32,641 nucleotides of DNA from a virus (taxonomy: Duplodnaviria > Caudoviricetes): positions 1 through 32,641 of IMG/VR virus record IMGVR_UViG_3300037483_001801. One strand, 5' to 3'. Made by a program: the position numbers and the translations under genes. Position 1 is the first letter of the stretch. Every line of letters starts with the position of its first letter. This document shows, in pieces, positions 4,643 to 25,057 of the stretch. The notes under the pieces are model-generated. The model saw only the letters and a program-made list of their open reading frames with translations. It searched no databases and was not told where the DNA came from.

Positions 4643-4857
4643 GCGACCGCATCATAAGGACCGAATACGTTCATGTTCCTACCGGAAATCCTATTGTAAT
4701 TTCTACCGGTCTCGGGGAGAAATGGTCGGTTTATATGGTCAAGCCCAACGGAAGCCTCCAGCGGTGTAAGCAATTCGGCCAATTTCTTATGGCTGGCACC
4801 GCCGGGCAGGAATTAATGAACTATAAAGGCAAGACAATTAAGAGGGCGACGGAGTGA
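4639..4857 (+). CDS. Hypothetical protein
   Basis: ATGA/GTGA coupling with both neighbours. Confidence 0.6.
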   Translation: MSDRIIRTEYVHVPTGNPIVISTGLGEKWSVYMVKPNGSLQRCKQFGQFLMAGTAGQELMNYKGKTIKRATE

Positions 4858-5081
4858 GCGGCGATATCTGCGTTCAGGCGCGAGATCTCTCATTGGAGAC
4901 TGGCTATGCCTATTCGGATATCCAGGAGTTTCTCGCGCGCGGGTTTACACCTGATCAGGTCAGGGTGATTACCGATACCTGCGACAAGCTGGATCCCGCA
5001 TGCCCCGGCATCGGGCATTTCGCTCTCAGGTCTTTCATCCGGATCATTCGCGGAGAAATCCTCTTCGGAGTGCCGGCATGA
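4854..5081 (+). CDS. Hypothetical protein
   Basis: Coupled overlaps on both sides. Confidence 0.55.
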   Translation: MSGDICVQARDLSLETGYAYSDIQEFLARGFTPDQVRVITDTCDKLDPACPGIGHFALRSFIRIIRGEILFGVPA

Positions 5082-5272
5082 AGGTGTTATTACATCTCGG
5101 CAGTCGAATAGATGACTATAAGATTCCAGAGGACAGCCCGCCCGCTGAGGTAGAAATAAGGCTTTTCCCTCCGTTTGCGCCCATGCCTGACACAAAAGTC
5201 CGCTTTTGCCTGGGAGGTCGGGCGGACGGCATGCCGTTATATAGATTGATGATGGCGAAGGTACAGAGATGA
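5078..5272 (+). CDS. Hypothetical protein
   Basis: ATGA overlap at 5078 (MKVLLHLG...). Confidence 0.5.
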   Translation: MKVLLHLGSRIDDYKIPEDSPPAEVEIRLFPPFAPMPDTKVRFCLGGRADGMPLYRLMMAKVQR

Positions 5273-6449: not shown

Positions 6450-6815
6450 ATGCAGAGCGCAAAGAGCATAGGGCATAGGACTATCAGAAAAGCTCCTTGG
6501 CACACGGAATATTACTGCAAGGCTCTCGAACAGGTCGCGGCGACAACCGGGCAGCTCTGCATCGAGGGCGACTGCGTCGGCTGGCTGGAATGGTTCGAGC
6601 AGAATCATCCCGGCCTTTTTCAGAAATACGAGAGCGCCATGGAAAGGTCGACCAAACTGTGGGGGAGCATGACGCCGGCCGATATGGAGGAGTTCAAGGT
6701 GTCGGTGAAGGTAGAGACGGACGCCATGGTTTGGGCGATACCGAAATATATCGAAAGTAGGGGCATGGCATGCCATGCCCCTACAGAGGCGAAACAGGAG
6801 GCGTTGGGAATATGA
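6450..6815 (+). CDS. Hypothetical protein (REP in 3' end)
   Basis: Directly follows SSB-like stop; SD AGGAGG. Confidence 0.65.
   Translation: MQSAKSIGHRTIRKAPWHTEYYCKALEQVAATTGQLCIEGDCVGWLEWFEQNHPGLFQKYESAMERSTKLWGSMTPADMEEFKVSVKVETDAMVWAIPKYIESRGMACHAPTEAKQEALGI
6757..6784. repeat. GTAG-family REP-like perfect palindrome
   Basis: GTAGGGGCATGGCATGCCATGCCCCTAC; near-identical copy at 11238-11265. Confidence 0.85.
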
Positions 6816-8182: not shown

Positions 8183-8989
8183 ATGAAGGCAAAAAAAAGA
8201 AAGAAAGGGGTTTTGATAAAGGTGAGAAAAAGCCAGAGAGGGCAGCCCAGCCAAAAGAAGGGCCTATATAGAGACTGCGAAGTCTGCGGCACAAGATTCT
8301 ACGTCCCGCTGTGTAGGATAGAATCGGCCCGGACGTGTTCGATCCCCTGCCGGAAGATGGCGCCCCATAGGAGTGGGAAGAAAGCCATTTACACGTTCAC
8401 CCCTCACATGGACGCCCTGATTTTCAAAGTCTATCGCGAAGAACAGCCCGCCCGGAAGGACAGGCACGTAAGGAAACTTGCAGAGGCTTTTAGAATGCCG
8501 AGGTGGAAGATCACTCGTCGGGCCAGGGAGATCGGTGCCTATGAGCCAAAGCTAAAGGAGCCTGTCTGGAGCGGAGAAGAGTTGAGGCTTTTGAAAAAAT
8601 TTGCGCACAGGCACCCGGAGGTTATCCAACGGCACTTCAAGAAGCGCGGGTTTAAGCGGTCTGTAACCGGGATTATCCTTAAACGCAAAAGAGAAAGAAT
8701 GATCGCGAACCTGGGTGCATATTCAGCATGTCAGGTCGCTCTGGGCTTGGGCGTTGACAGCCACGCCATAACGCGATGGATTGAGCAGGGTTTATTGGAT
8801 GCGACAAAGAGAGGCACTGCTCGGACGGCCTCGCAGGGCGGCGATATCTGGTTCATAAGAGAGAAGGACCTCCGCAAATTTATCATAGAGAACGTCGGCA
8901 TCATCGACATCAGGAAGGTCGAAAAATTCTGGTTCGTCGACCTTATAGCACACCGGCCGGCAGCCGCCTCTGAAGAGGACGCAGCATGA
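8183..8989 (+). CDS. Putative DNA-binding protein (Zn-finger plus HTH/Myb-like repeats); start uncertain
   Basis: CEVCG...CSIPC, WSGEELRLL...RSVTGI, VALGLGVDSHAITRWI. Confidence 0.65.
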   Translation: MKAKKRKKGVLIKVRKSQRGQPSQKKGLYRDCEVCGTRFYVPLCRIESARTCSIPCRKMAPHRSGKKAIYTFTPHMDALIFKVYREEQPARKDRHVRKLAEAFRMPRWKITRRAREIGAYEPKLKEPVWSGEELRLLKKFAHRHPEVIQRHFKKRGFKRSVTGIILKRKRERMIANLGAYSACQVALGLGVDSHAITRWIEQGLLDATKRGTARTASQGGDIWFIREKDLRKFIIENVGIIDIRKVEKFWFVDLIAHRPAAASEEDAA

Positions 8990-9925
8990 GGACAGCGTTC
9001 TCTGTTGACGAACTGATAATCGACAATTTCGCCGGAGGGGGAGGCGCGAGCCTGGGGATCGAAATGGCGCTGTCCAGGCCGGTCGATATCGCTATTAACC
9101 ACGACGCGGTGGCTGTTGCGATGCATGCCGTCAATCATCCCGGAACAAAGCACTATTGTGAAAACGTCTGGGACGTGGATCCCGCAGAGGCATGCGGCGG
9201 CAGGCCGGTCGGTGGCGTCTGGTTTTCCCCGGACTGCAAGCACTTCAGCAAAGCCAAGGGCGGCAAACCGGTCGAGAAGAAGATCCGGGGTCTCGCCTGG
9301 GTCGTCCTCAGGTGGGCTGCAAAGGTCCGGCCGAGGATCATCTGGCTCGAAAACGTCGAGGAGTTCATCACCTGGGGACCGCTTGTAAAGGACGAAAACG
9401 GCGATCATTATCCGTGCCCGAAGCGCAAGGGCCGGACGTTCAACGCTTTTGTTAATGCATTGAAGCGACACGGCTACGAGGTCGAGTGGAGGGAGCTCAG
9501 GGCCTGCGACTTCGGCGCCCCGACGATCAGAAAGCGTCTCTTCCTGAGATCCGAACCTGCGGGAGCCGCTGCATACGGTTACAACGCGGGACCGCTTTGG
9601 CCTTGTGACTGTCCGGGGAGAAGAGTACCAGATCGTGGATATCGGTATGCGCATGCTGGTCCCCAGGGAGCTTTTCCGTGCTCAGGGGTTTCCGGACTCC
9701 TACATTATAGATCGGGACATAGAAGGCAAGCCGATCACCAAGACCGAGCAGGTCGCCAAGTGCGGGAATTCGGTGTGTCCGGGCGTGGCAGCTGCGCTGG
9801 TTACGGCGAATGTCCGGATAGATATATCCGCGATATCCGGAAAGACTCGGGGATATCCCGACGTCGACGCGATAGATGTATCACGCAGGCGGATCCTCGA
9901 GGAGCTTCAGGAAGGATACATGTAG
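8986..9925 (+). pseudogene. C5-cytosine DNA methyltransferase with internal deletion and frameshift
   Basis: Motifs I (FAGGGG), IV (SPDC), VI (ENV), VIII (RKRLF) in one frame up to ~9546; C-terminal part (DPNLREPLHTVTT..RMLVPREL..QGFP..GNSV) in a different frame from ~9548. Confidence 0.85.
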
Positions 9926-9926
9926 C
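9817..9926. repeat. Array A: three 12-bp palindromic repeats (intervals 54 and 44 bp)
   Basis: GATAGATATATC 9817, GATAGATGTATC 9871, GATACATGTAGC 9915. Confidence 0.9.
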
Positions 9927-10943
9927 ATGAAGGAGATCGCGGAAATAAAAGACCGGCTGCGGGACGTGAACATAGTTTCTTTCTCCGGAGGTAAGGACAG
10001 CACGATTGTTCTTCATCTCGTCCTCAATGCCCTGCGTGAGTTCATGGCAGCCGAAGGCGGCGCGCCACCTCTTTATATTGTCACGTCCGATACTCTGATG
10101 GAGATACCCTTCTACCAGGAATACGTGGACCGAATCAGGCGGCAGATCAAGGACTATGTCGATGCGGCCTGCATTGATGCGGAGATCATCACCGTCCGCC
10201 CGGACTTGTCTTTAACTTTCTGGGTGTGTGTGCTCGGCAAGGGATATCCGGCCGCTCATATGGGTTTCCGCTGGTGCACCGGAGTTCTTAAGGTCGATCC
10301 TATCGAGCGTTTTACAAAGACGATCACAGAAGGCAAGGATTATACCGTGTTTATCGGCGTTCGCCGCGCCGAGAGTGAACTGAGGGCGAAGATCTATAAG
10401 AAGAAGGACTATAAACCCAATCACTACGCGCCGATCCTCGACTGGCAGAATCAGGACGTCTGGACATATCTTTTGACTGAGCCCTGTCTATGGGGATCTC
10501 ATGAGGAACTTGTGAAGGTCTACCGGTACAGCTCGGACGAATGCGTCTACGGCGAAAAGCAGGGCGTGTGCATCGGCAACGCCCGCTACGGCTGCTGGGC
10601 CTGTCCTCTTCAGAGGTCCACACAGCTCAACATGATCGGCTATCACACCGGAGATCCCCGTTACCGCCTGCTTCGCGAATACAAAGAGACGCTGGTAAAT
10701 ATGGCGAACAATACCGCTTATCGCTCGCGCATCAGAAGGAATGGCGAGGAAGGCGCCGGGCCTTTCCTGGTAAAGATCAGAAAGCAACTTTATTCAGCTT
10801 TGAAGAGGTTGGAAGATAAGACACAATGGCCGTTGATTTCGAGAGGCGAAGAAGAAATTATTTTTGATTACTGGACCACCGAAGATGATATCCACAACAT
10901 TCCGGACGATACCAGTCCAATGCTCTGGGAGGTTTGCGGATGA
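9927..10943 (+). CDS. PAPS-reductase family protein, DndC-like
   Basis: SFSGGKDS PP-loop, SDT, RWCT..LKVDPI, GVRRAES, RYGCWAC; start at MKEIAE. Confidence 0.85.
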   Translation: MKEIAEIKDRLRDVNIVSFSGGKDSTIVLHLVLNALREFMAAEGGAPPLYIVTSDTLMEIPFYQEYVDRIRRQIKDYVDAACIDAEIITVRPDLSLTFWVCVLGKGYPAAHMGFRWCTGVLKVDPIERFTKTITEGKDYTVFIGVRRAESELRAKIYKKKDYKPNHYAPILDWQNQDVWTYLLTEPCLWGSHEELVKVYRYSSDECVYGEKQGVCIGNARYGCWACPLQRSTQLNMIGYHTGDPRYRLLREYKETLVNMANNTAYRSRIRRNGEEGAGPFLVKIRKQLYSALKRLEDKTQWPLISRGEEEIIFDYWTTEDDIHNIPDDTSPMLWEVCG

Positions 10944-11356
10944 GAGAGGCGACCATTACCACCCACACACCTACATCACCTTATTGTTCCCATTGCGGGC
11001 GGAGATGCACATGCGGGACTGATAGCGTGAATCCTATAATTGTCATTGCCGCCATGCCTTTTAACTTTGTTGTTCCATCGACTTTTGAGTGCATCCAGAC
11101 GACTGACTTATATATCTCTCAGACCCGCTTTCTGGATGAACTCCGCGAATCGATTAGCGAGAGTGTTCCGGAACGCATAGACAAAATCGCCTACATGCGG
11201 TCGATGTGGCAGGTACCCAGGGCTTTGTCCGTTCCCTGTAGGGGCATGGTATGCCATGCCCCTACAAACCGGAGAAAACCCTTTCGCCGCCGTATGCTCT
11301 TTTCTCATAGCGGCTGGATAGGCCGCGCGGGGCGGGAGAAAAGAGGGCAGAAGTGA
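10940..11356 (+). CDS. Hypothetical protein (REP inside)
   Basis: ATGA/GTGA coupling on both sides. Confidence 0.5.
   Translation: MREATITTHTPTSPYCSHCGRRCTCGTDSVNPIIVIAAMPFNFVVPSTFECIQTTDLYISQTRFLDELRESISESVPERIDKIAYMRSMWQVPRALSVPCRGMVCHAPTNRRKPFRRRMLFSHSGWIGRAGREKRGQK
11238..11265. repeat. GTAG-family REP-like palindrome
   Basis: GTAGGGGCATGGTATGCCATGCCCCTAC, 27/28 identical to 6757-6784. Confidence 0.85.
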
Positions 11357-12264: not shown

Positions 12265-12752
12265 TGCAGAGGCAGACCATATTCTCTCCCTGCCGGCAAT
12301 ATCGCTACACACTCTGGCGCGAGTTCGATATGTTCAATTCGTCCTATGCCATGTTCGTAGGGCTGAACCCCTCGACGGCCGATGAAGTGCAGAATGATCC
12401 TACGGTCCGGCGGTGCATCAATTTTGCGAAGTCCTGGGGATATGGCGCCCTCTGTATGACGAATATCTTTGCCTATAGAGCTACAGATCCCCGGGAGATG
12501 GTAGCACAGGCTGATCCGGTCGGTCCCGAAAACGACGAATGGCTCGTGCGCTGTGCGAGAGAAGCGGGCATTGTTGTAGCTGCTTGGGGAAACCACGGCT
12601 CTTACTTAGATCGCGACAGGGAAGTTATGAGAATCCTCGATAATCTGTCCTGCCTCGGGATCACGAAGGCAGGACAGCCGATTCATCCGCTTTACGTGCC
12701 GGCGGACAGAAAGACAATCCCTTACAGAAAGGATATTCACCCGGGCCATTGA
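12264..12752 (+). CDS. DUF1643 family protein
   Basis: YRYTLWR, GLNPSTAD..NDPT.RRC..FA, NIFAYRATDP, AWG, HPLY. Confidence 0.9.
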   Translation: MQRQTIFSPCRQYRYTLWREFDMFNSSYAMFVGLNPSTADEVQNDPTVRRCINFAKSWGYGALCMTNIFAYRATDPREMVAQADPVGPENDEWLVRCAREAGIVVAAWGNHGSYLDRDREVMRILDNLSCLGITKAGQPIHPLYVPADRKTIPYRKDIHPGH

Positions 12753-15700
12753 CCTCTGATTTCGAACGGATAAAAGACAAGCTGGACCTGTTGAGCGTGA
12801 TCACGCAAGAGACAGGTTTTTCCATGCGCGGAAAACACCTGGAGCAGTGCCCTTTCTGTCAGGGGCATGAGTGCTTTTCGATCTTCGATAACAATAAAAG
12901 GTATAAATGCCACCAGTGCCCCTCGGCCGGCGATGTGTTCACTTTCCTCGGGGAATATAAGTCCATCGCGGACAATTACGATGTCCTGAAGTATGCGGCA
13001 CAGCTCGCCGGCATCACGCTCACGGAGAAGGCCAGGCGGGAGGTAAAGCTCTCCACAAAGGAGCGGATATTCATCGAGGCGGCGAATTACTACCACGGCC
13101 ATATGCTGGACAACGGCGGGAAAAAATACCTGGTCGAGCAGCGCGGGCACAAGGAGGACGTCCTCAGGAAGATGCGCGTGGGCTGGACGGACGGCTGGCT
13201 GGTGGAATATCTCCGCTCGAAGAGCTTTACGGACACCGAGATCAAGGCTTCGGGCCTGGCAAAGATCCGGAAAACGGCCGAGGACGGGGAGCACCTGGTC
13301 GATTTCTTTGTGAAGGACGTTGCGATTTTCCCGCATGGGGAAAAAGAGAGCGTCTTGCATTTCACCATCAAGGACCCTCAGAAGAAGTATAAGTATCAGC
13401 TCCCGGAGAAGGAGCGGATAAAGGACTGGCGGTTTTATAACCAGGAGGCTCTCGCGAAGTTCGGGGAGATCATCGTCGTCGAGGGGGAAAACGATGTTCT
13501 GAGCGTGATGGATGCGGATGTGCAGCATGTGATCGGGCTCATAGGCTCGCCGGCGGAATATCAGATGAAGGCCCTGCAGACCTACTGCGCGAAAAAGCAC
13601 CTTTATCTCTGGATGGACAACGACGAGGACCCGAAGGACATCAAGGCCAAGGGGAAAGGCTACATCCGGAGGATCTGCGAGGCGCTTGGGAACCATATCA
13701 ATATCCGCGTTATCAGCTATCCTGCGGAGTTTAAGGACCCGGATGAATATTTAAGGGCCTTTCTCCCGGGTATAGACCGCAGGAAGGAGACCAGGAAGCT
13801 TCAGGATGAGGCCGTGGATTACGTCTCATGGGAGATCCGGGAGATCGGCAGGCTCGAAACGCTGGATGAACGACTGAAGGCACTGAAGGACCGGAAGATT
13901 TTCGCGGCCGTAGCCGAGATGGTGGAGGCCGAGAAGCTGGTCTATATCGAGAAGCTCACGAAGCTTGGGTTCACAGAGAAGGCCGTAGAGCAGCAACTGG
14001 AGTTTAATCACGATCTCCGGCAACGGCTGGCGATCTATTTCGAGCAGGTCCCGAAGAAGGACGCGGACCCGAATTATATCGCCTCGGAGATTTTCAAGAG
14101 CTTGTCTGAGACCGGCAGGTGGTACAGGGACCGCATGGGAGACGTGTATCTGCTCTATCAGCATCACACCTATTCGATCGGGAACAACCGGCCGTTTAAC
14201 GCGCTGGTCAAGAGGCTCACGAGCCTGCTGCCGACAAAGGAGCCGGGCCGGTCGGTCTGGGAGTCCCTGGCGAGCGAGGCTTATAACTCGGGCATACAGA
14301 TTGACCTGGCCTCGTGGATCCACACGGACAGGTCCACGGACACGATCTATATCAACGTGAACTCGCCGAACGCCGTGATCCTGAAGGTGAGCAGACAGGG
14401 GATCGAGGAGATACAGAACGGCATAAACAAAGAGGCCGTCCTGCTGAAGTCATCGAGGAAGATCCTGCCGATGAACTACCTTCCGGACGCGGACATGAGG
14501 GAGGGAATGACGGCCCTGAGGGATCTGGTCTTTGATAATATGACTTGTGAGCGCGAACAGCGCTACCTTATTCTTTGCTGGATGATATCGGCCTTCCTGC
14601 TGGACTTTACGCCCTATATGGGGCTGATGAAGTTCTCCGGCGCATCGAGCGCCGGGAAAACGACGGCCGCAAGGCTCCTTTCTCTTTTGATCTACGGCAA
14701 CGAGCACCTGGGCGACCCGACAGCCGCCTCGGCGTATGCGATCGCGGCGCAGAACCCGCTCCTGATCATCGACAACCTGGAGAGCGACGACTTTACAAAA
14801 TCAATATTAAAATTCCTTCTTCTTTCCGCTACAAAGGGAGGCAAGGAGAAACGCACCCAGGGGACGGACAGCGACACGATCCAGGAGACGCCGAAGGCCC
14901 TGGTCCTCATTACGGCCATAGAGCCGTTTACGAAGGGAGAGCTGATCAACAGGACCTTCGATATCGACTTCTCGTTCAAATTCAAGAACGATGCGTTTGT
15001 CGAGGACGAGGTGATCCGGGCTATCGTGAAGAAGCGGGACCTCATTATCTCGTCCGTGCTGAAGTTTATCCAGAAGGAGATCCTGCCGAATCTTGAGGTG
15101 CGGAAAGACTATATCACCATCCTGAAGAAGGAGCATAAGAACCATGCGAAAAACCGGACGGACGAATACCTGGCGCTCCTTATGCTCATGCTCGAAAAGA
15201 TGCTCCAGTATATCCCGTATTACGACGAGAACGACTTCCTGTACGGCACCCAGGAGGAGATCCCCACGGCCGCAAAGGAGATTAGAAACGCCTGGATCGA
15301 TTACCAGAACGCCAAGGCGAAGGAGACGGAGACGTCCTCCAACAGCATTATTAAGCTCCTGGACGGCCTGGTCCGGGAGTACATGGCGAAGATGAAGGGC
15401 CTCCAACCGGAGAACCACAAGGATTATCCGGACGAGGATGTCTTTGTCTACACGCACACTGACTATCACATCGAGGTGTTCAAGACAAAGGCGAAGAGCC
15501 ACTGCATGGCCTGCCATAAAATCAGGGACTCTTTTGCCGACGGCGAGAAATGCGAATGTACGGACGCACAGGCCGGCGAGATTTATTCGCGCGCGATTTT
15601 TGAATTTATAGCCACCTCCAGTGAAATGGTGGACGCGCTCGACCTGCTTTGCCGGAGCCGAGGCATCAAGAACCCTTACGGGACGGCCGCGATCTTCACG

Positions 15701-15835
15701 AAGCGCTTATCGAACGACGAAAAGACCCTGAAGGCCGCAGGCTGGGAGTTGGTGACGAAGGAAGGCCTCGAGCCGTACTTCAAGAAAGTCCAGGGCACGA
15801 GGTTCCTGAAATTCAGAAAGGTGCTGGTGAGATGA
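12749..15835 (+). CDS. DNA primase-helicase (Zn finger + TOPRIM + P-loop domain)
   Basis: CPFC..H..C..C Zn finger; VVEGEND, MDND, KDPDE TOPRIM motifs; GASSAGKTT Walker A; IIDN Walker B. Confidence 0.9.
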   Translation: MTSDFERIKDKLDLLSVITQETGFSMRGKHLEQCPFCQGHECFSIFDNNKRYKCHQCPSAGDVFTFLGEYKSIADNYDVLKYAAQLAGITLTEKARREVKLSTKERIFIEAANYYHGHMLDNGGKKYLVEQRGHKEDVLRKMRVGWTDGWLVEYLRSKSFTDTEIKASGLAKIRKTAEDGEHLVDFFVKDVAIFPHGEKESVLHFTIKDPQKKYKYQLPEKERIKDWRFYNQEALAKFGEIIVVEGENDVLSVMDADVQHVIGLIGSPAEYQMKALQTYCAKKHLYLWMDNDEDPKDIKAKGKGYIRRICEALGNHINIRVISYPAEFKDPDEYLRAFLPGIDRRKETRKLQDEAVDYVSWEIREIGRLETLDERLKALKDRKIFAAVAEMVEAEKLVYIEKLTKLGFTEKAVEQQLEFNHDLRQRLAIYFEQVPKKDADPNYIASEIFKSLSETGRWYRDRMGDVYLLYQHHTYSIGNNRPFNALVKRLTSLLPTKEPGRSVWESLASEAYNSGIQIDLASWIHTDRSTDTIYINVNSPNAVILKVSRQGIEEIQNGINKEAVLLKSSRKILPMNYLPDADMREGMTALRDLVFDNMTCEREQRYLILCWMISAFLLDFTPYMGLMKFSGASSAGKTTAARLLSLLIYGNEHLGDPTAASAYAIAAQNPLLIIDNLESDDFTKSILKFLLLSATKGGKEKRTQGTDSDTIQETPKALVLITAIEPFTKGELINRTFDIDFSFKFKNDAFVEDEVIRAIVKKRDLIISSVLKFIQKEILPNLEVRKDYITILKKEHKNHAKNRTDEYLALLMLMLEKMLQYIPYYDENDFLYGTQEEIPTAAKEIRNAWIDYQNAKAKETETSSNSIIKLLDGLVREYMAKMKGLQPENHKDYPDEDVFVYTHTDYHIEVFKTKAKSHCMACHKIRDSFADGEKCECTDAQAGEIYSRAIFEFIATSSEMVDALDLLCRSRGIKNPYGTAAIFTKRLSNDEKTLKAAGWELVTKEGLEPYFKKVQGTRFLKFRKVLVR

Positions 15836-15839
15836 CGAT

Positions 15840-16071
15840 GATACATCTATCACCGCGGAGCTCGGCGCCGAGGCCTCGCAGCGGCTATATCTATCGAGTA
15901 CTGCAGCAGGACCTGGTCACGATCGGCGATACATCTATCATCGTCCCTGGGCGGTACCTGGTTCGGCCGAAGATAGATATATCATGCCGGCAGCTGCTCG
16001 GGGATCCGGATCCACGATACATGTATCGGAGCTCAGGGAGGATCCCACTGCAGGGCCCGGATAGATATAGC
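15840..16071. repeat. Array B: six 12-bp palindromic repeats, exact 44-bp period, 32-bp spacers
   Basis: Repeats start at 15840, 15884, 15928, 15972, 16016, 16060. Confidence 0.97.
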
Positions 16072-16085
16072 AAAGGAGGGAGAGC

Positions 16086-16376
16086 GTGAAGTGTCCATAT
16101 ATAAAAGGGAAGAAGCCGTGCGGAGGCGGACTCCTCACAAAGAGGACCCTGGCGAACGGGAACAAAGTCACCAGGGAACGGTATTGTCCGAAGTGTCGGA
16201 ACCGTTTCATGACGGTCGAACAGTTCGACAGCCATATCTGGGCTGAGAAGGCCAAGGAACAGGAGCGGGTACTGCGGCTGGAGAAGAAGATGCAGGACCT
16301 CGACTTGGAGCTGGAGTTCTACAGAAACATCTTTATAAATCTCAAGTCCGCAGTGGAAAGGGCCGCGAAGAGATGA
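16086..16376 (+). CDS. Zn-ribbon protein (NrdR-N/Ogr-like) with coiled coil
   Basis: MKCP....C...RERYCPKCRNRFMTVE; SD AAGGAGG. Confidence 0.75.
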   Translation: MKCPYIKGKKPCGGGLLTKRTLANGNKVTRERYCPKCRNRFMTVEQFDSHIWAEKAKEQERVLRLEKKMQDLDLELEFYRNIFINLKSAVERAAKR

Positions 16377-16381
16377 GCCAG

Positions 16382-17005
16382 GGGGCAGATGATAAAATGA
16401 CATCCTTTGAAAGAGCCGAGGTGCTCACAAAACAGGGAATTTTCGTTACGATTCGTAACATTTTCTTTTTTTTCCACCTTCCGGAAAAGTTTTGGACCAA
16501 TCTTTCTGAAATCACTGCCCCTCTGCCCCTAAACATACCTAACCTTTTAATTTTAAAGTATAAGTTTAAGGGGCAGATGCAGGGGCAGAGAGGGGGCAGA
16601 AGGGGGCAGAAACGGGGCAGGAAACAGGCCGGTCGATTCATCTGCCCCCAGACTTTCTCCAATCTTTTCAAAGGGTTAGTCATTAGGGGGCAGAGGGGCA
16701 GTTCAAAAGATTGGTATCAAACACGTTTTTCGATGAGTTCTCTCTTTTTATACCTAAAAGAAAATAGATTGTTTTTAGTTATTCAAAAGATAGTTATTAA
16801 GGTCAATAGAGTCAATGATATCAACAGTTTAAATTTACTCTGTGCTGGGTCGGTATTGGTTCATCGGTTTCAGGTGGCTTGGAACGGAGCTAAAAAAGCT
16901 AAATCATTAACCGCACATTCTCAGATTATATGCGGTTATGCCTATAGCCGGTCTAATAAAATCAATAAGTTAGGTGGTTTAGATCAACAGAAATATGCGG
17001 TTAGA
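16382..17005. other. Putative replication origin: GGGGCAG iterons, AT-rich DNA, IHF-consensus sites
   Basis: 11 GGGGCAG copies on both strands (five at 10-12 bp spacing, 16570-16620); WATCAANNNNTTR at 16819-16831 and 16960-16972; downstream of primase-helicase. Confidence 0.7.
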
Positions 17006-17217
17006 TTCAAATCCAGTCAGATTCGGGAGGGTCAGCAGACTGGTCAAGGGCACCCCCCCTATCGAAAATTCAGCGGATTGTCCGGTCTCCCCTCCCCCAT
17101 TCATAGCTTTAAAATGGCTGGTTATTCAAAGGGGTTTTCAAAAGGCATAGTCAAAGGATTTTTCTTTTCATTTGTCTTTAGTTTTCGAAAAGTGGGGGGT
17201 CCGGGGGGAGGGAGCCT

Positions 17218-18246
17218 GTGCTGAGCTATCTCGCAGGATTTCAGCGTTCATTGCAGGTCCTAGAGGGGCTCAGCCCCGCGACGACGCATGCCTACAGCTG
17301 GAAAGTCCGTGAGTTCCATGCCTGGCTCGTTGGAAACGATGTCCCCGCCGTCCCTGCTGAAATCACGCGCCGGCACATCGAGCTATACCTGGAACACTGC
17401 TTTTACCGGGGCAACTCGAACCAGACCCGACACACCAAGCTTACCGCCCTCGGCAAATTCTTCCGGTACCTGAAATACGAAGGGACCGTCTCCGAGGATT
17501 TCACTGCCGAGATCCCAAAGCCCAGGATCCACGTAAACCGGATACAGAAATTCACCAAGATCGAAGTACTTTCCTTTTTCCGAGCTATCGATATCGGAAC
17601 GGAAAAAGGCCGCCGCGACGTCGTGATCTTCATCCTGGCCGCTTTCTGCGGCCTGCGCATCGGAGAGATCTGCAAACTCAGGATCGGCAACGTGATCGAC
17701 GACGGAAAAAACATCGACATCGATATCTCCGAGGACATCGGGAAAAAACACTCTATCAGATCAATCTATCTCTGGAAAGTCCCCGGAGAATACGTTCGCT
17801 CCTATGTCATCCAGCGCCTCTCCCAGGGAGCGAGAATACAAGACACCCTACTGGTGAGCTACAAACACGGCCGGCCCTCGAACAAGCCGCTCACCGCCTG
17901 CGCCATAGACGGCCTGATCAAGAAATATGCCGACAAAGCGAGCATCCGGAAGCCCAAAATCTGCTGCCACATGTTCAGGGCAACACACGCTTCCGATCTC
18001 CGCTATATCCGAGGATATGACTCGGCCGCAATCGCCGGCAGGATGGGGCATTCAAACATCGCCACCACAGACCGATACCTCCCCGAACGCGGGCGTATTC
18101 ATAAAATTTATCAGTCCTTGGCTGTCTACTGGAAAGAGTTCAATCACATCTGGGATAAAGGAGAAGCGCATGATCACAACAGCAGCGCCGGCAACACTTC
18201 CGGCCACGATATTCAGGGAGGTAACGCAATTGACGGACAAACCTGA
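17218..18246 (+). CDS. Tyrosine recombinase (XerC/D-like, with N-terminal SAM-like domain)
   Basis: LSPATTHAY...ALGKFFRYL N-domain; CGLRIGE, HMFR, MGHS, TDRY catalytic motifs. Confidence 0.93.
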   Translation: MLSYLAGFQRSLQVLEGLSPATTHAYSWKVREFHAWLVGNDVPAVPAEITRRHIELYLEHCFYRGNSNQTRHTKLTALGKFFRYLKYEGTVSEDFTAEIPKPRIHVNRIQKFTKIEVLSFFRAIDIGTEKGRRDVVIFILAAFCGLRIGEICKLRIGNVIDDGKNIDIDISEDIGKKHSIRSIYLWKVPGEYVRSYVIQRLSQGARIQDTLLVSYKHGRPSNKPLTACAIDGLIKKYADKASIRKPKICCHMFRATHASDLRYIRGYDSAAIAGRMGHSNIATTDRYLPERGRIHKIYQSLAVYWKEFNHIWDKGEAHDHNSSAGNTSGHDIQGGNAIDGQT

Positions 18247-19045: not shown

Positions 19046-19145
19046 GATACATCTATCCGGGCCCTGCAGCGGGATCCTCCCGGAGCTCTGCTACATTTAG
19101 CAGGCGGCCGGCTCCTCGATCAGCTGCCGGCACGATAGATCTATC
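19046..19145. repeat. Array C: three 12-bp palindromic repeats at 44-bp period; inverted homologue of the end of array B
   Basis: GATACATCTATC 19046, GCTACATTTAGC 19090, GATAGATCTATC 19134. Confidence 0.95.
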
Positions 19146-20186: not shown

Positions 20187-21410
20187 ATGGCCAAGTATGA
20201 GATCGAGTACAGTTGTGGACACACCGACACCATCCAGCTCTACGGAAAAACCTCGGAGAGGCATCGTTATCTAGAGTGGGCAAAAGACAATAAGCTTTGT
20301 CCCGAGTGCTGGGAGACTGCGAGGCTTAAAGAGCGCGAAGAAGCCAGCCAACAGGCGGCACAAGAGAACACAGACTTCGGTCTACTACCACTTACCGGCA
20401 CAGAAAAACAGATAGCCTGGGCCGAGACGATCCGTAAGGACAAAGCGACATCACTGACCTCCGCAGTCGCATCCTACGACGAGAAGGCTGCAAAAATCGC
20501 AGCCGATCCCTCTCTACTTCTGAAGCATAACGAAGCATATCAAAAAGAAGGGTTCGATGATTTTGAACATGCCTTATTCTGCGCCCGCGAAGCAGTTGAC
20601 GCCATTATGGGTGAAACATCGGCCCACTGGTGGATAGATCACCGCGATGATAACATGGGGCAGCTTATACTGAACAAGGCAAAAGAGGTTGCGAAGACCC
20701 GCAAGGATAGTACGCCGCAAGCCGTAGACGCCCAAATAGAGGCAACTGTGCGCCCGGAGAAACCTGTGACGGAAACTGTGGCCGAGATCCACATCCGCGA
20801 AAAGGTTGTCGAGGTTGTATTTCCCGAGAAGAGGGAAGACTTCCGGGAACTGGTCCGGTTCAAGCTCGGGTATTCATGGGATAAGGAGAAAACCCGCTGG
20901 GCGCGCAAGCTTGATCTGAAGAGCGGGGCTGCAGAACATCGCGCTGCCGAACTCGGACACAGGCTTCTTTCTGCCGGGTTCCCAGTTCGCATCTTTGACG
21001 AGTCTGTCCGGGGTAAGGCTGTCAACGGCGAGTACGAGCCGGAATGCCACCGGTGGATCATGAAGCGCACTGCAGGGGAGAATGCCGGATGGTTCTCGAT
21101 CTCCTGGCCGAAAGATGAAGACTTCTATAAGGCCGCAAAGAAACTACCAGGCAGCCGCTACAGTAAGCCGGACGTTGTAGCCCCCCCTGAGCAGTTCGAG
21201 CAGATCCTCGATTTCGCCGAGATGTACGGGTTCAAGCTTTCTCCCGGTGCCCAGGAAGCGGCAGATGCTGCACGTAAGGTAAAAGATGCGGCGCTTACAG
21301 CCAAAGTGGAAGAGACCCGCAACGATGCCAGCCCGCCTGAACCCGGCGAGAGGCCGCGTAGACTGGCAGTGCCGGAGAATGTCGAGGTGGCTGATGAATT
21401 TAAGGACTGA
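20187..21410 (+). CDS. Hypothetical protein (first gene of SNF2/IbrAB operon)
   Basis: 407 aa; CGH...CPEC, LTGTEKQIAWAETIR, AHWWID motifs; SD AGGAGGT. Confidence 0.85.
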   Translation: MAKYEIEYSCGHTDTIQLYGKTSERHRYLEWAKDNKLCPECWETARLKEREEASQQAAQENTDFGLLPLTGTEKQIAWAETIRKDKATSLTSAVASYDEKAAKIAADPSLLLKHNEAYQKEGFDDFEHALFCAREAVDAIMGETSAHWWIDHRDDNMGQLILNKAKEVAKTRKDSTPQAVDAQIEATVRPEKPVTETVAEIHIREKVVEVVFPEKREDFRELVRFKLGYSWDKEKTRWARKLDLKSGAAEHRAAELGHRLLSAGFPVRIFDESVRGKAVNGEYEPECHRWIMKRTAGENAGWFSISWPKDEDFYKAAKKLPGSRYSKPDVVAPPEQFEQILDFAEMYGFKLSPGAQEAADAARKVKDAALTAKVEETRNDASPPEPGERPRRLAVPENVEVADEFKD

Positions 21411-22809
21411 CCTTATGGTCCATCAGTCTGAGGCGGTCGAGAAGATGCTGCCGACGCGGATAGGCGCGTTGTTTATGGAGATGGGGACGGGCAAGAGCCG
21501 GACGGCGATTGAGATTATCCATCGCCGTCTTAGCCGGATCAAAAAAGTATTCTGGTTTTGTCCTGTCTCACTCAAGCAGACCATCCGGCACGAGATCCTG
21601 AAGCACACGGACTGCACGGATGCGGATGTCCACGTATTCGGTGATAAGACAAATGAGCGCACTGCGCCTGTATGCCTCTGGTACGTTGTCGGCATAGAGT
21701 CCATGAGCGCCTCAGCGCGAGTTGTCGTCACCGTTAATAAGCTGATCACGGAGGACAGCCTGGTAATTGTGGACGAGTCCAGCTACATCAAAGGGCACAA
21801 TGCCACGCGCACACAGAGGATCACGAAGCTCTCTGAGCGTGCCCGTTACCGGCTTATACTCACCGGCACACCCATCAGCCAGGGCGTAGTGGACCTTTAT
21901 GCTCAGATGCGCTTTCTTTCCCCTAAGATCCTGGGGTATCGGTCGTTCTATTCCTTTGCGGCAAACCACCTGGAATATTCTGAAAAGTTTCCTGGCATGA
22001 TCGTCCGCAGCCACAACCTGGAGTTCATTGCCGCCAAGATCAAGCCATATGTCTACCAGGTCACAAAAGACGAATGTCTCGACCTGCCGGACAAGCTCTA
22101 CGAGACGCGGTATTTTAGTATGACCGGGGACCAGCGCCAGGCATATGAGCAGGCGAAAGAAGAGATCATTCCGGAGATTGAGAACGATACTTTCGATTCG
22201 GTGACGATCTTCCGTCTCTTCATCGCCCTGCAGCAGATCGTATGCGGGTTCTGGAACCAGCACCGCAAAGGCCGGCCAGTAGATCGTCACGAATTCGACC
22301 ATCGTCGCACAGACGTGCTGATGGACACGGTTACAAGTATCCCGGAGAACGAACAAATTATCATCTGGACGAAATACAAGCACGACATCGAGGAGATCAG
22401 CGCCGCCCTGCAGGAGAAGTTCGGCGGGGACTGCGTTGCCCCTTTTCATGGGGCGCTGAATGAAAAGAGGCGGTCTGCCCAGGTGGAAAGATTTAGGGAC
22501 GGTTCACGGTTCTTCCTCGCCACACAGAGCTGCGGAGGGCACGGTCTCACATTGAACGAATCGCACTATGTGATTTACTATAATAACGCCTTCAAATATT
22601 CCGAGCGTCAGCAGTCAGAAGACCGCTGCCATCGCATCGGGCAAGAGCATAAGGTCGTTTACATCGACATCCAGTGCAGCGACAGCATAGACGACCGTAT
22701 TGCCAAGGCACTGGCCTCGAAGGGGAGCGTGGTCGAGCAGTTCAAGGCAGAGGTAGACAAGGTGAAGTGTCAGAAGGGTAAACTGAAAGACATGGTGAAG
22801 GCGCTATGA
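21394..22809 (+). CDS. SNF2-family helicase/ATPase
   Basis: MEMGTGKS, DES, LTGTP, GGHGLTL, QSEDRCHRIGQ; start MNLRTD. Confidence 0.92.
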   Translation: MNLRTDLMVHQSEAVEKMLPTRIGALFMEMGTGKSRTAIEIIHRRLSRIKKVFWFCPVSLKQTIRHEILKHTDCTDADVHVFGDKTNERTAPVCLWYVVGIESMSASARVVVTVNKLITEDSLVIVDESSYIKGHNATRTQRITKLSERARYRLILTGTPISQGVVDLYAQMRFLSPKILGYRSFYSFAANHLEYSEKFPGMIVRSHNLEFIAAKIKPYVYQVTKDECLDLPDKLYETRYFSMTGDQRQAYEQAKEEIIPEIENDTFDSVTIFRLFIALQQIVCGFWNQHRKGRPVDRHEFDHRRTDVLMDTVTSIPENEQIIIWTKYKHDIEEISAALQEKFGGDCVAPFHGALNEKRRSAQVERFRDGSRFFLATQSCGGHGLTLNESHYVIYYNNAFKYSERQQSEDRCHRIGQEHKVVYIDIQCSDSIDDRIAKALASKGSVVEQFKAEVDKVKCQKGKLKDMVKAL

Positions 22810-24125
22810 GCGGGAAGAAGATATATCAGGAGATCAATGTCTACGAGGCCGCACAGCAGCGGCTGAAGTTCATCTTCGACAACTTCGATAATATTTATGT
22901 CTCATTCAGCGGCGGCAAGGATTCCGGCATGCTGCTGAACCTCTGCATCCAATACATGCAGCGGCACGGCATCATACGGAAGATCGGTGTGTTCCATCAG
23001 GACTTTGAGGCCCAGTACACGGAGACGACAAACTACGTGACACGTATGCTCACATCTCCGGAGAACCTGCAATATATCACGCCGTACTGGTGCTGCCTGC
23101 CGATGTCCTGCAAAACGGCGACCTCGATGCACGAGCAGTACTGGACGCCATGGGAGCCGGCGAAGCGAGATATATGGGTCCGGAAGATGCCGGACTATCC
23201 CGGCGTGATCAACCTCGATAATCATCAGTTTGATTTCTACAAAGAGGGAATGCTGCAGGAGGATTTTTATGAGGCATTCACACCATGGTATCATCGGCAC
23301 GTAGGCGGCGGTAAGGGCAAGACCTGCGCGCTCGTGGGTATTCGCGCACAGGAAAGCCTGAATCGCTGGAGAGCAGTCACCAAAGGGCGGTATATGTTTC
23401 AGGGGGTAAGGTGGACCACCGGCTGTGAGCCGGACGTGTTCAGCGCCTATCCGTTGTACGACTGGACTGCCGATGACATCTGGATCGCCAACGCCCGGTT
23501 CGGATTCGACTATAACAAACTCTATGACCTGTTCTACTACGCCGGGCTGTCCATCCACGAAATGCGCGTTGCCAGCCCGTTCAACGACTGGGCTATCAGC
23601 AGTCTTAAACTCTATCGGGTAATTGAGCCGAATATATGGAGCAGGATGGTAGGCAGGGTCAACGGTGCGAATTTTACATCCATCTACGGCGGCACGAACG
23701 CCATGGCCTGGAAGAATATCAAGCTGCCGGAGGGGCACACCTGGCAGAGCTATGCAGAGTTCCTGCTCAAGAGCCTGCCGGAGGAGACGCGCAGGACGTT
23801 CGAAGAGAAGTTCAGCACATCGATAGATTTCTGGCTGAAAAGAGGCGGCGTGCTCTCGGATGAAACTATCGAAGAGTTGCGCCAGATGGGTGTTAAGATC
23901 ACCGAGCACGGCAAGACGAAATACAAAACCGACAAGCGGCGGGTTACGTTCGCGGAATATCAGGACGACCTCGATATCAAGGAATTCCAGAGCGTGCCGA
24001 CCTATAAGCGCATGGCGATCTGCATACTCAAGAACGACCACCTCTGTAAATACATGGGCTTCAGCCAGACGCAGAAAGAAGCGAATAAACGCAAAGAGGC
24101 CATGGCAAAGTACATGGCGCTTTAA
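22806..24125 (+). CDS. IbrA/YbdN-like PAPS-reductase + DUF3440 protein
   Basis: SFSGGKDS, DFEAQY, GIRAQESLNR, YPLYDW..DIW, MRVASPF, RVNGANF, ILKNDH.C. Confidence 0.9.
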   Translation: MSGKKIYQEINVYEAAQQRLKFIFDNFDNIYVSFSGGKDSGMLLNLCIQYMQRHGIIRKIGVFHQDFEAQYTETTNYVTRMLTSPENLQYITPYWCCLPMSCKTATSMHEQYWTPWEPAKRDIWVRKMPDYPGVINLDNHQFDFYKEGMLQEDFYEAFTPWYHRHVGGGKGKTCALVGIRAQESLNRWRAVTKGRYMFQGVRWTTGCEPDVFSAYPLYDWTADDIWIANARFGFDYNKLYDLFYYAGLSIHEMRVASPFNDWAISSLKLYRVIEPNIWSRMVGRVNGANFTSIYGGTNAMAWKNIKLPEGHTWQSYAEFLLKSLPEETRRTFEEKFSTSIDFWLKRGGVLSDETIEELRQMGVKITEHGKTKYKTDKRRVTFAEYQDDLDIKEFQSVPTYKRMAICILKNDHLCKYMGFSQTQKEANKRKEAMAKYMAL

Positions 24126-24137
24126 AAGGAGGGCATC

Positions 24138-24551
24138 ATGATCAGAAAATATATTCAGGGAGAAGGACAGGCCGGGGACCGCGAGTTATTCGGGCTGCTC
24201 GGCCTGTGGATCACGTCGAGGAAAATCAGCGAGACCTTGGGCTCGCCGATCCATAGCGACCAGGGAGACATCTGGCATGTGTTTATTGATCCTGCCGGAG
24301 CGCCGCTCGGTTTTGCATTGACACATATATTCAAGACGACCGATACCGCGCATATCCGCTTTCTGTTTGTCCCGTCAGGGATGCTGAAAATACAGGATGC
24401 GCTGCTTAAAGGAGTGATCGTGCTCGCTAAAGAGCACGGGCTGAAGAGCGTTTACACCTATGACCGCAAGGACAGTATATGGGAAAAAGCCGGCTTCAAA
24501 AAGCACAAGAAGCCCCGCAGCTCATTCTACAAGTGGGAGAAAAGTCTATGA
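24138..24551 (+). CDS. GNAT-like acetyltransferase-fold protein
   Basis: GFAL...HIRFLFV...LLKGVIVLA...WEKAGF pattern. Confidence 0.55.
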   Translation: MIRKYIQGEGQAGDRELFGLLGLWITSRKISETLGSPIHSDQGDIWHVFIDPAGAPLGFALTHIFKTTDTAHIRFLFVPSGMLKIQDALLKGVIVLAKEHGLKSVYTYDRKDSIWEKAGFKKHKKPRSSFYKWEKSL

Positions 24552-25057
24552 CCAGCCCGGCCTACAATATTATTGCGGTTCCAGTGGAGAAGATCCGGGC
24601 AAACGCCTACAATCCCAACAAAGTCGCGCCGCCGGAGATGAAGCTGCTGGAAATTTCCATATGGGAGGACGGCTATACCATGCCTATAGTCTGTTATTAT
24701 ATTTCCGGAGAGGATGCCTATGAGATAGTGGATGGATACCACCGGTATACTGTGATGCTCACAAGCAAGCGCATCCGCGAGCGTGAAAACGGCATGCTGC
24801 CGGTTGTGGTGATCGAGAAGGACATCAACAACCGCATGGCCAGCACCATCCGGCACAACAGGGCGCGCGGATCACACTCCATCGAGTTGATGAAAAATAT
24901 CGTGGCCGAGTTGGTGCAGTCCGGCATGTCCGACCAGTGGATCATGAAGCACATCGGCATGGATGTTGACGAACTGCTAAGGCTGAAGCAGATCACCGGT
25001 CTGACCGCATTATTCGCAGATCAGGAATTCTCGAAAGCGTGGGAGGTGGCCGAATGA
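24548..25057 (+). CDS. IbrB/YbdM-like ParB-domain protein
   Basis: ANAYNPNKVAPPEMKLL..SI..DGYTMPIV..IVDGYHR..ASTIRHNRARGSH. Confidence 0.92.
   Translation: MTSPAYNIIAVPVEKIRANAYNPNKVAPPEMKLLEISIWEDGYTMPIVCYYISGEDAYEIVDGYHRYTVMLTSKRIRERENGMLPVVVIEKDINNRMASTIRHNRARGSHSIELMKNIVAELVQSGMSDQWIMKHIGMDVDELLRLKQITGLTALFADQEFSKAWEVAE

Follow-up and report, generated by a model that had tools for sequence, protein, structure and literature searches.

The virus genome analysed here carries three arrays in which short boxes alternate at a nearly constant period with unique spacers, and exact 6-bp symmetry is selected in the spacers of the family to which these arrays belong. The carriers of the family are of distinct kinds, among them tailed prophages, conjugative elements and non-tailed proviruses. 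Our preferred reading, to which we assign a probability of about 0.4, is that the arrays act as operators or roadblocks, with spacers that present target sites of many host methylases and restriction enzymes, and that they would work as a host-independent methylation switch.

The window, that is, the whole stretch of DNA analysed (32,641 bases), is the complete record IMGVR_UViG_3300037483_001801 (G000). Its 43 ORFs were searched against Pfam and PHROGs, 26 ORFs against PADLOC and the DNA against Rfam. It encodes a repressor-like HTH protein, two tyrosine recombinases, a primase-helicase and a Mor-family activator, together with numerous DNA-modification genes (C5 and N6 methyltransferases, two PAPS-reductase-like proteins and ParB-like proteins). 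The box of the window is a 12-bp near-palindrome, GMTAnATnTAKC, repeated in three arrays with a period of 44 bp and one step of 54 (table 1). Array A forms the last codons of a C5 methyltransferase ORF, whose frame reads through the array to its stop, and lies immediately upstream of a DndC/PAPS-reductase-like gene. Array B, with five unique 32-bp spacers, starts 4 bp past the stop codon of the primase and ends 14 bp upstream of the zinc-ribbon gene. Array C duplicates the final two units of array B in inverted orientation (83%), is missing from the related phage L026, and precedes a run of ParB-like, SNF2, PAPS-reductase and methylase genes. Arrays A and C flank DNA-modification genes.

Table 1. 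Arrays and neighbouring genes in the window.
Feature	Positions	Strand	Description or basis
Array A	9817..9926	.	Three boxes at 9817, 9871, 9915 (periods 54, 44); 7 hexamer palindromes
Array B	15840..16071	.	Six 12-bp boxes at 15840, 15884, 15928, 15972, 16016, 16060 (period 44)
Array C	19046..19145	.	Three boxes at 19046, 19090, 19134 (44, 44); 8 hexamer palindromes
Zinc-ribbon protein gene, 96 aa	16086..16376	+	PF22811 match, structure model, NrdR similarity, co-occurrence
Primase-helicase gene, directly 5' of array B	12749..15835	+	Domain searches
C5 cytosine methyltransferase, 3' end overlapping array A	8986..9930	+	Domain searches, PADLOC
XerC-like tyrosine recombinase, downstream of the zinc-ribbon gene	17218..18246	+	Domain search

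Several other features of the window deserve mention. At 20187-25057, genes for an SNF2 helicase, a PAPS reductase-DUF3440 protein and ParB-like proteins form a single run common to L026, a candidate phage DNA-modification operon. The AT-rich stretch between the zinc-ribbon and XerC-like genes (16440-17220) holds inverted and direct GGGGCAGA repeats, with an inverted repeat near 16905-16940; it looks like a replication origin with a recombinase site, and a 283-aa ORF within it may therefore be no gene. Locus L075 has a region of similar build downstream of its array. Finally, two 29-bp palindromes at 6757-6785 and 11238-11266, 97% identical and beginning GTAGGGGCA, resemble GTAG-type REP elements.

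An earlier note on this DNA had listed 18 hexamer palindromes in the five spacers of array B (15852-16059), and all 18 are present. Dinucleotide-preserving shuffles of each spacer give a mean of 4.19 (sd 1.94) and a maximum of 14 in 20,000, so the excess persists, and the two or three that had been expected should be read as about four given the 70% G+C of these spacers. The enrichment also proposed for arrays A and C is borne out, with 7 palindromes against 2.35 (P 0.002) and 8 against 1.81 (P 0.0002), respectively. Ranked by palindromes per 208 bp, the arrays take the first three places in the window (20, 12 and 12; the next-densest stretch has 10). In array B the excess is strongest at six bases: 4-mer palindromes number 18 against 13.6 expected (P 0.09), not significant alone, all 18 of the 18 extend to 6-mers, and 6 reach 8-mers (vs 1.3, P 0.003). 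The near absence of AA/TT steps is real in number (2 of 155) but largely a matter of composition, mostly due to the high G+C content (6.4 expected, P 0.026). The statement that phages avoid such sites stands for CCGCGG, GGGCCC and CTCGAG, each below 0.1 of expectation outside the arrays, but not for GCCGGC, TCCGGA and GATATC, which are above it.

The word list of array B resembles a commercial multiple cloning site, as a cloning-vector polylinker or a misassembly would produce, an artefact to which we attach practically no credence. None of 72,556 natural plasmids covers the array, with four short chance matches in a collection that is not a cloning-vector library. Related phages have orthologous arrays (L026, 75% identity over 3.4 kb; L067, 81% over 238 bp), and spacers diverge across 21 records; the divergent orthologues already refute the artefact. 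In addition, contigs from soil run X5 of another study span 15863-16150 as two segments, both with 3 differences, and cover of the array comes from the independent runs X5 and X3 (soil and marsh runs); run X1, possibly the source run, was left out. The sequence of array B is natural.

To delimit the family, a three-box pattern search returned 1 viral, 11 genome and 15 metagenome loci, and a two-box pattern 1 and 40. From the 67 pattern loci, arrays of 23 locus ids and of the window were kept and duplicates merged, while tandem repeats and AT-rich two-box chance pairs were left out by eye. The resulting set contains 21 records (the window included), 33 arrays, 88 spacers and 121 boxes, with 2-7 boxes per array and one to five arrays per element. 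The steps across the 88 spacers are of 44 bp in 77 cases, 43 in 3, 54 in 7 and 55 in 1. Spacers differ between records yet are equally palindrome-rich. In an unselected scan of spacings 32-62, 19 of 98 pairs lie 44 bp apart, 18 of them G+C-rich; these 19 hold 46 palindromes against 52 in the remaining 79 pairs, and no spacing other than 43-44 and 54-55 was found. A G+C-rich two-box pair with a 43-bp spacing at L173:401-455 is possibly another array.

Named hosts are mostly Nitrospirota, with some Deltaproteobacteria, Nitrospinota and bins of doubtful assignment. Among the carriers, L040 is a tailed prophage (terminase, Rep O), L033 and L039 are conjugative elements (type IV secretion in the former, TrwC nearby in the latter), L059 is a RepA/ParA replicon whose arrays are near-identical to those of L049, and L048 is a provirus with a P2-type coat protein. 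One 66-kb contig (G003:C23; loci L043, L030, L125 and L126) combines four arrays with conjugation-type and bacterial-looking genes in an archaeal bin, and is probably mis-binned. ParE toxin genes lie near an array at L019:11680-11934 and L039:10417-10683, in both cases in elements without a zinc-ribbon gene, and DUF932 and RadC genes are found downstream of arrays in L043 and L053.

Selection on the spacers was examined in 55 non-redundant 32-mers. They contain 119 hexamer palindromes, against 41 in dinucleotide shuffles, 34.6 in column shuffles, and 34.8, 44.5 and 69.4 under Markov models of orders 1 to 3 (order 3: sd 8, maximum 98 of 400). The palindromes peak at distances of 11, 22 and 33 bp from the centre of the box, 37 of the 119 being centred exactly and 65 within one base, although the P values for this phasing are optimistic, the spacers being related. 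The sites lie in phase with the 12-bp box and at least 2 bp outside it. At these slots symmetry extends to four and to six bases with probabilities of 0.79 and 0.84, and then 0.43. The suggestion of the earlier note that the boxes are protein sites is supported, these being predicted from sequence and in helical phase; the 11-bp phasing itself and the gene for a predicted cognate protein are additions to that note.

Selection in the spacers favours exact, restriction-type palindromes. One orthologous spacer has GGTACC at its centre in the window, whereas L004 and L067 have GATATC there and L001 has GGATCC; judged from these alignments, the swaps are paired changes that preserve symmetry. A wider comparison of palindromes at the same centre gave 21 swaps, 81 identical words and 267 present in one spacer only, but with non-independent pairs and a low identity threshold, and only the orthologous examples are firm. 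Two of 32 odd five-base classes stand out: CCWGG (22 vs 7-13 expected), whose enrichment survives the order-2 null, and GCWGC, which is not significant under it (24 vs 17.8, sd 4.5). Neither GANTC, GGWCC nor CGCG is enriched, and GAATTC and AAGCTT do not occur in the spacers. Inexact instances of degenerate six-cutter sites are mostly unenriched, RCCGGY alone of the 24 tested being raised (5 vs 1.6). Within an array, words are only slightly more diverse than chance would give (P 0.001 raw; 0.007 and 0.096 once overlaps are removed). Enzyme names for the words were taken from the Biopython list, and the array words are probably among the commonest restriction-modification motifs. The main text of Blow et al. 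2016 does not list the motifs sought. Two further ideas were rejected. If the array words formed a protected list, tolerated or avoided elsewhere, their avoidance should be distinctive, and outside the arrays it equals that of other palindromes. An origin of the spacers by inversion or gene conversion would leave whole-spacer dyad symmetry, which is clear just at the central hexamer, reaches at most about 2.5 sd beyond it, and comes with no hairpin excess.

Could DNA mechanics alone account for these patterns? The protein would kink the boxes, and the spacers would be straight or in-plane-bending arms, with the phased hexamers a by-product. The common helical phase of palindromes and box fits such a scheme, as do the mild depletion of AA/TT (73 vs 98), the depletion of CGCG and of GCGCGC (zero in the spacers), the enrichment of CAG/CTG, and the lack of enrichment of asymmetric restriction words (non-palindromic Type IIS words, 130 vs 121 and 21 vs 32). 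However, hexamers symmetric in purine/pyrimidine alone are not enriched (131 vs 145), nor are inexact ones with strong/weak symmetry, and hexamers one pair off are slightly depleted. The palindrome excess survives the order-3 null, symmetry falls past six bases, and 82 of the 119 palindromes lie outside the three exact slots. We therefore regard mechanics as a sole cause as unlikely, and the plain DNA-shape option raised in the earlier note is weakened.

The spacers are not acquired foreign DNA, as had been argued: their fixed order is inherited with point changes, and units are copied between arrays. A function at the RNA level, as guide array, structured RNA or coding sequence, seems to us very improbable. 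One frame per strand is open across array B, and arrays are probably transcribed, since they often sit within runs of co-directional genes. Yet neither as RNA nor as DNA do the spacers fold better than shuffled sequence, and the fold of array B (z -1.7) is driven by its palindromic boxes. There is no Rfam match in the window DNA and no Cas or Nop-domain match among its ORFs; spacing changes by steps of one helical turn, and the period of 44 brings box stop codons into every frame (e.g., L005).

The 96-aa protein is the sole small protein common to array loci, with its gene in 14 of the 21 records and usually immediately next to an array, on either side. Its match to PF22811 has an E value of 1.9e-5, below the curated cut-off. 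The best profile match is NrdR, as are all of Foldseek ranks 1-10 (E 0.03-0.14), and the structure model (pLDDT 94) predicts a three-strand zinc ribbon (residues ~1-46) followed by one 48-residue helix. The protein thus carries the DNA-binding zinc ribbon of NrdR on a long helix, a relationship newly recognised here. It lacks the ATP cone, and its near relatives are nearly all 84-104 aa long and without PF03477. Clustering at 90% leaves ~80 proteins in the family, with 62 representatives at E 1e-10; a member occurs in 5 of 401 genomes of a phylum sample. In cultured phages and plasmids no family member was found, the only match being a true nrdR; a single-protein viral scan gave no match, and VIA-align gave only uninformative alignments of the helix with generic coiled coils.

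Linkage between gene and array was also apparent from the protein side. All three new full-length loci found by a protein-first search (L075, L078 and L082) bear arrays, that of L078 having two boxes 6 kb from the zinc-ribbon gene, and arrays are present at none of 46 loci with just NrdR or a partial zinc ribbon. From homology and linkage together we consider it very likely that the zinc-ribbon protein binds the boxes. The gene is missing from the DNA read in 7 of the 21 array records; for four of these gene-less records the whole genomes were searched and lack a full-length member, and the 66-kb contig with four arrays, read end to end, has no zinc-ribbon gene. Such arrays may depend on a co-resident element, be relics, or have a different reader. 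In L041, a second, diverged copy of the gene (4817-5086, minus strand; E 2e-9) is in tandem with the first. In a 165-aa protein, P0079, the primase C-terminus continues in frame into the latter half of the zinc-ribbon protein, a fusion that implies a relative from which array B was deleted, unless it is a misassembly.

The predicted long helix would also suit bridging, and arrays and coiled-coil protein might loop or tether the element, as centromere-like or tyrosine-recombinase accessory sites, with other dimeric proteins reading the palindromes. Elements carry one to five arrays, tyrosine recombinases lie close to the module in many of them, and parA is directly 5' of the zinc-ribbon gene in L049 and near the arrays in L059, the only two elements with it. 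Nevertheless, no ParA is encoded among the window ORFs, no recombinase lies beside some arrays (L039, L046, L059), and a single reader does not explain some twenty different words. A role in segregation or recombination architecture is, in our estimation, quite unlikely.

The relation to NrdR needs closer definition. In the accessible parts of the NrdR literature, the boxes conserve C4, A6, A8, T9, T11 and G13, residues D15 and R17 read C4/G13, and each box is kinked by ~90 degrees (PMC9110341, PMC13584703, PMC12051234). Like NrdR, the array protein has a zinc-ribbon DNA-binding domain, and the array box, with its AnATnT core, retains A6, A8, T9 and T11; whole-helical-turn spacing is common to both. 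Unlike NrdR, the array protein has the long helix in place of the ATP cone and keeps R17 but has T for D15. At the C4 place the array box has A in 192 of 242 strand-pooled copies, its outer pair being mostly A/T, and both critical bases, C4 and G13, occur together in just 4 of 121 array boxes. Box centres are 44 or 54-55 bp apart in the arrays and 31-32 or 40-43 in the NrdR examples given in those same parts, where linkers are unconstrained in sequence, whereas array spacers are constrained (PMC9110341, PMC13584703, PMC12051234). No RNR gene is found among the 43 window ORFs, and no array upstream of 10 host RNR loci. The arrays therefore do not belong to an NrdR regulon: the zinc ribbon is shared, while ATP cone, box bases and spacing, and RNR location all differ. 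Host NrdR was considered as the binder and set aside: host proteins retain D-S-R, and hosts keep canonical NrdR-box pairs 32 bp apart at reductase genes (3 of 10 loci; the strict box-pair pattern occurs in none of 5 genomes), against the 4 of 121 array boxes noted above. Judging from these residues and boxes, host NrdR is unlikely to bind the arrays.

How might the arrays act? They tend to begin at a stop codon and finish ahead of a ribosome-binding site by two tests, given as raw counts: in 17 of 33 arrays the end of an open frame falls between -5 and +6 bp relative to the first box, the box itself supplying stop codons, and a strict co-directional test holds for 12 of 33. Orientation shows partial polarity (17 lean one way and 5 the other, n=27), and in several elements the array lies downstream of the zinc-ribbon gene. 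Since the arrays tend to start at stop codons and lean to one orientation, as phage stoperators do, a transcription roadblock at gene junctions is plausible, and we rate it as somewhat probable. Many different dimeric readers best explain a six-base symmetry that is exact, phased and interchangeable, and restriction-modification enzymes are the obvious class of such readers; that the palindromes are maintained as restriction-modification sites seems likely, and we infer that they may act in cis as a sensor. In the switch that we propose, the zinc-ribbon protein would bind and kink the helically phased boxes, and the spacers with their many palindromes would offer a pad to host methyltransferases and restriction enzymes. 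Action of a host enzyme on this pad would switch the hold of the protein, turning read-through into the next genes on or off, and with about twenty specificities the switch would be workable in nearly any host.

The same sites might instead be an anti-restriction decoy or trap, in which enzymes would be caught on the sites on offer, bound but unable to cleave DNA under such constraint. The words are indeed exact and restriction-type, and some that are otherwise avoided lie largely in the arrays (copies inside and outside: CTCGAG 1 and 1, CCGCGG 1 and 1, GGGCCC 2 and 1, GGATCC 5 and 7). Titration is nonetheless disfavoured by numbers, with 38 palindromes in the arrays against 201 same-word copies elsewhere in the window and one to five copies per specificity on a single-copy element. 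Moreover, the protein would be absent at entry unless packaged, and neither a reverse transcriptase nor another amplifier is found among the 43 window ORFs. A simple decoy is unlikely, and the trap in general decidedly so. A further possibility is that the bound protein shields the sites from methylation, so that its loss would expose the element to a break by the host restriction enzyme, as a fuse, or that cutting at junctions would aid gene capture. The arrays do lie at gene junctions and are gained, lost and duplicated, as the derivation of array C and the shared arrays of L049 and L059 illustrate. In the available text of two studies, OxyR binding blocks Dam methylation (PMC2909390), and gene capture at clustered sites is proposed for IncP-1beta plasmids (PMC3590792). 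On the other hand, a break usually kills a single-copy element, and orthologous spacers are intact rather than broken and rejoined; we find a pad for cutting improbable.

With the decoy and plain DNA shape both weakened, a sensing pad is left as the best, albeit unproven, of the options in the earlier note. The methylation switch is favoured because a switch in cis requires one event only, whereas the numbers disfavour titration, and by analogy with OxyR/Dam at P22 gtr and the Dcm-sensing retron. Its weakest step is the methylation read-out, since the sites lie beside the boxes and not within them, with no direct methyl read-out evident. Also counting against it are the lack of enrichment of Type IIS words, the absence of several common sites such as GAATTC and AAGCTT from the spacers, and the gene-less 66-kb contig with its four arrays. 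More tentatively, the whole could be a portable sensor of restriction-modification status, in which an NrdR-derived protein would kink the DNA every 44 bp, the arms would show about twenty specificities on one face, and genes of phages, conjugative elements and non-tailed proviruses would be gated. If true, an element could tell, for any of the common methylases and restriction enzymes, whether it is already under the protection of that enzyme or has only just been exposed to it, and we would see how a broad-host-range element reads host methylation without knowing the enzymes of its host. The arrays also record specificities that matter in uncultured Nitrospirota and Deltaproteobacteria, and would represent a reuse of the DNA-kinking module of NrdR beyond nucleotide metabolism.

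Mobile elements are expected to lose restriction sites; in the arrays, positive selection maintains such sites at set positions on the helix and exchanges one word for another, words nearly purged from the remainder of the genome among them. Among known systems, the operator of phage Mu mom is reportedly methylation-gated, and, by analogy with it and with P22 gtr, the arrays would place methylase sites beside predicted regulator sites on phage DNA. At gtr and mom, one methylase acts on one motif (GATC) inside the site of a host regulator, whereas the arrays have some twenty motifs beside the boxes of a predicted element-encoded binder. CRISPR repeats are ~23-47 bp long and accompanied by cas genes; the array repeat is of 12 bp, and no Cas protein was detected in 43 window ORFs (Pfam, PHROGs) or 26 (PADLOC), nor any Rfam match. 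For P22 gtr, the portion of the study available describes OxyR and Dam coupling phage gene expression to methylation (PMC2909390). Retron Ec86 msDNA, in the accessible part of the report, senses Dcm via a CCWGG site displayed on a nucleoprotein (10.1101/2023.08.16.553469); there the DNA is multicopy, reverse-transcribed and paired with a toxic effector, whereas the arrays are single-copy genomic DNA, with neither a reverse transcriptase found among the window ORFs nor an effector recognised. Like CRISPR and TIGR, as the latter appears in the sections available, the arrays alternate short repeats with unique 32-nt spacers beside a small gene (PMC12045711), but they have no Cas or Nop protein, a single repeat type, and spacers that are inherited and duplicated. 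TIGR-Tas, from the same sections, combines a Nop-domain protein with alternating edge and loop repeats in 36-nt units (PMC12045711), against the one repeat type, period of 44 and zinc-ribbon neighbour of the arrays.

Cluster A mycobacteriophage stoperators, as presented in the accessible text, are repressor sites dispersed in short intergenic spaces, with a proposed block to elongation (PMC9283540), and the arrays may resemble them in a tendency to lie at gene junctions and in partial polarity. In that text each stoperator is a single asymmetric 13-mer, oriented with transcription, to which a monomeric repressor with HTH and Stoperator domains binds, with no arrays or palindrome pads (PMC9283540); the array box is instead near-palindromic, the polarity is partial, and the predicted binder is a zinc-ribbon protein. 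IncP-1beta plasmids have clustered restriction sites between backbone modules, called insertion hot spots, which are natural site clusters in a mobile element like the arrays, but with no phased boxes or cognate protein described in the available part of that paper (PMC3590792). This single sentence is the nearest description in the accessible portions of the open-access literature searched, which do not describe the box, the protein family or the array (PMC3590792). The arrays are thus members of none of the CRISPR, TIGR, NrdR regulon or stoperator classes. Their parts have precedents, but we know of no kind of system in which putative operator arrays in phase are combined with pads of many specificities under positive selection; whatever the mechanism, the arrays amount to a new kind of constraint on non-coding DNA, common to very different elements.
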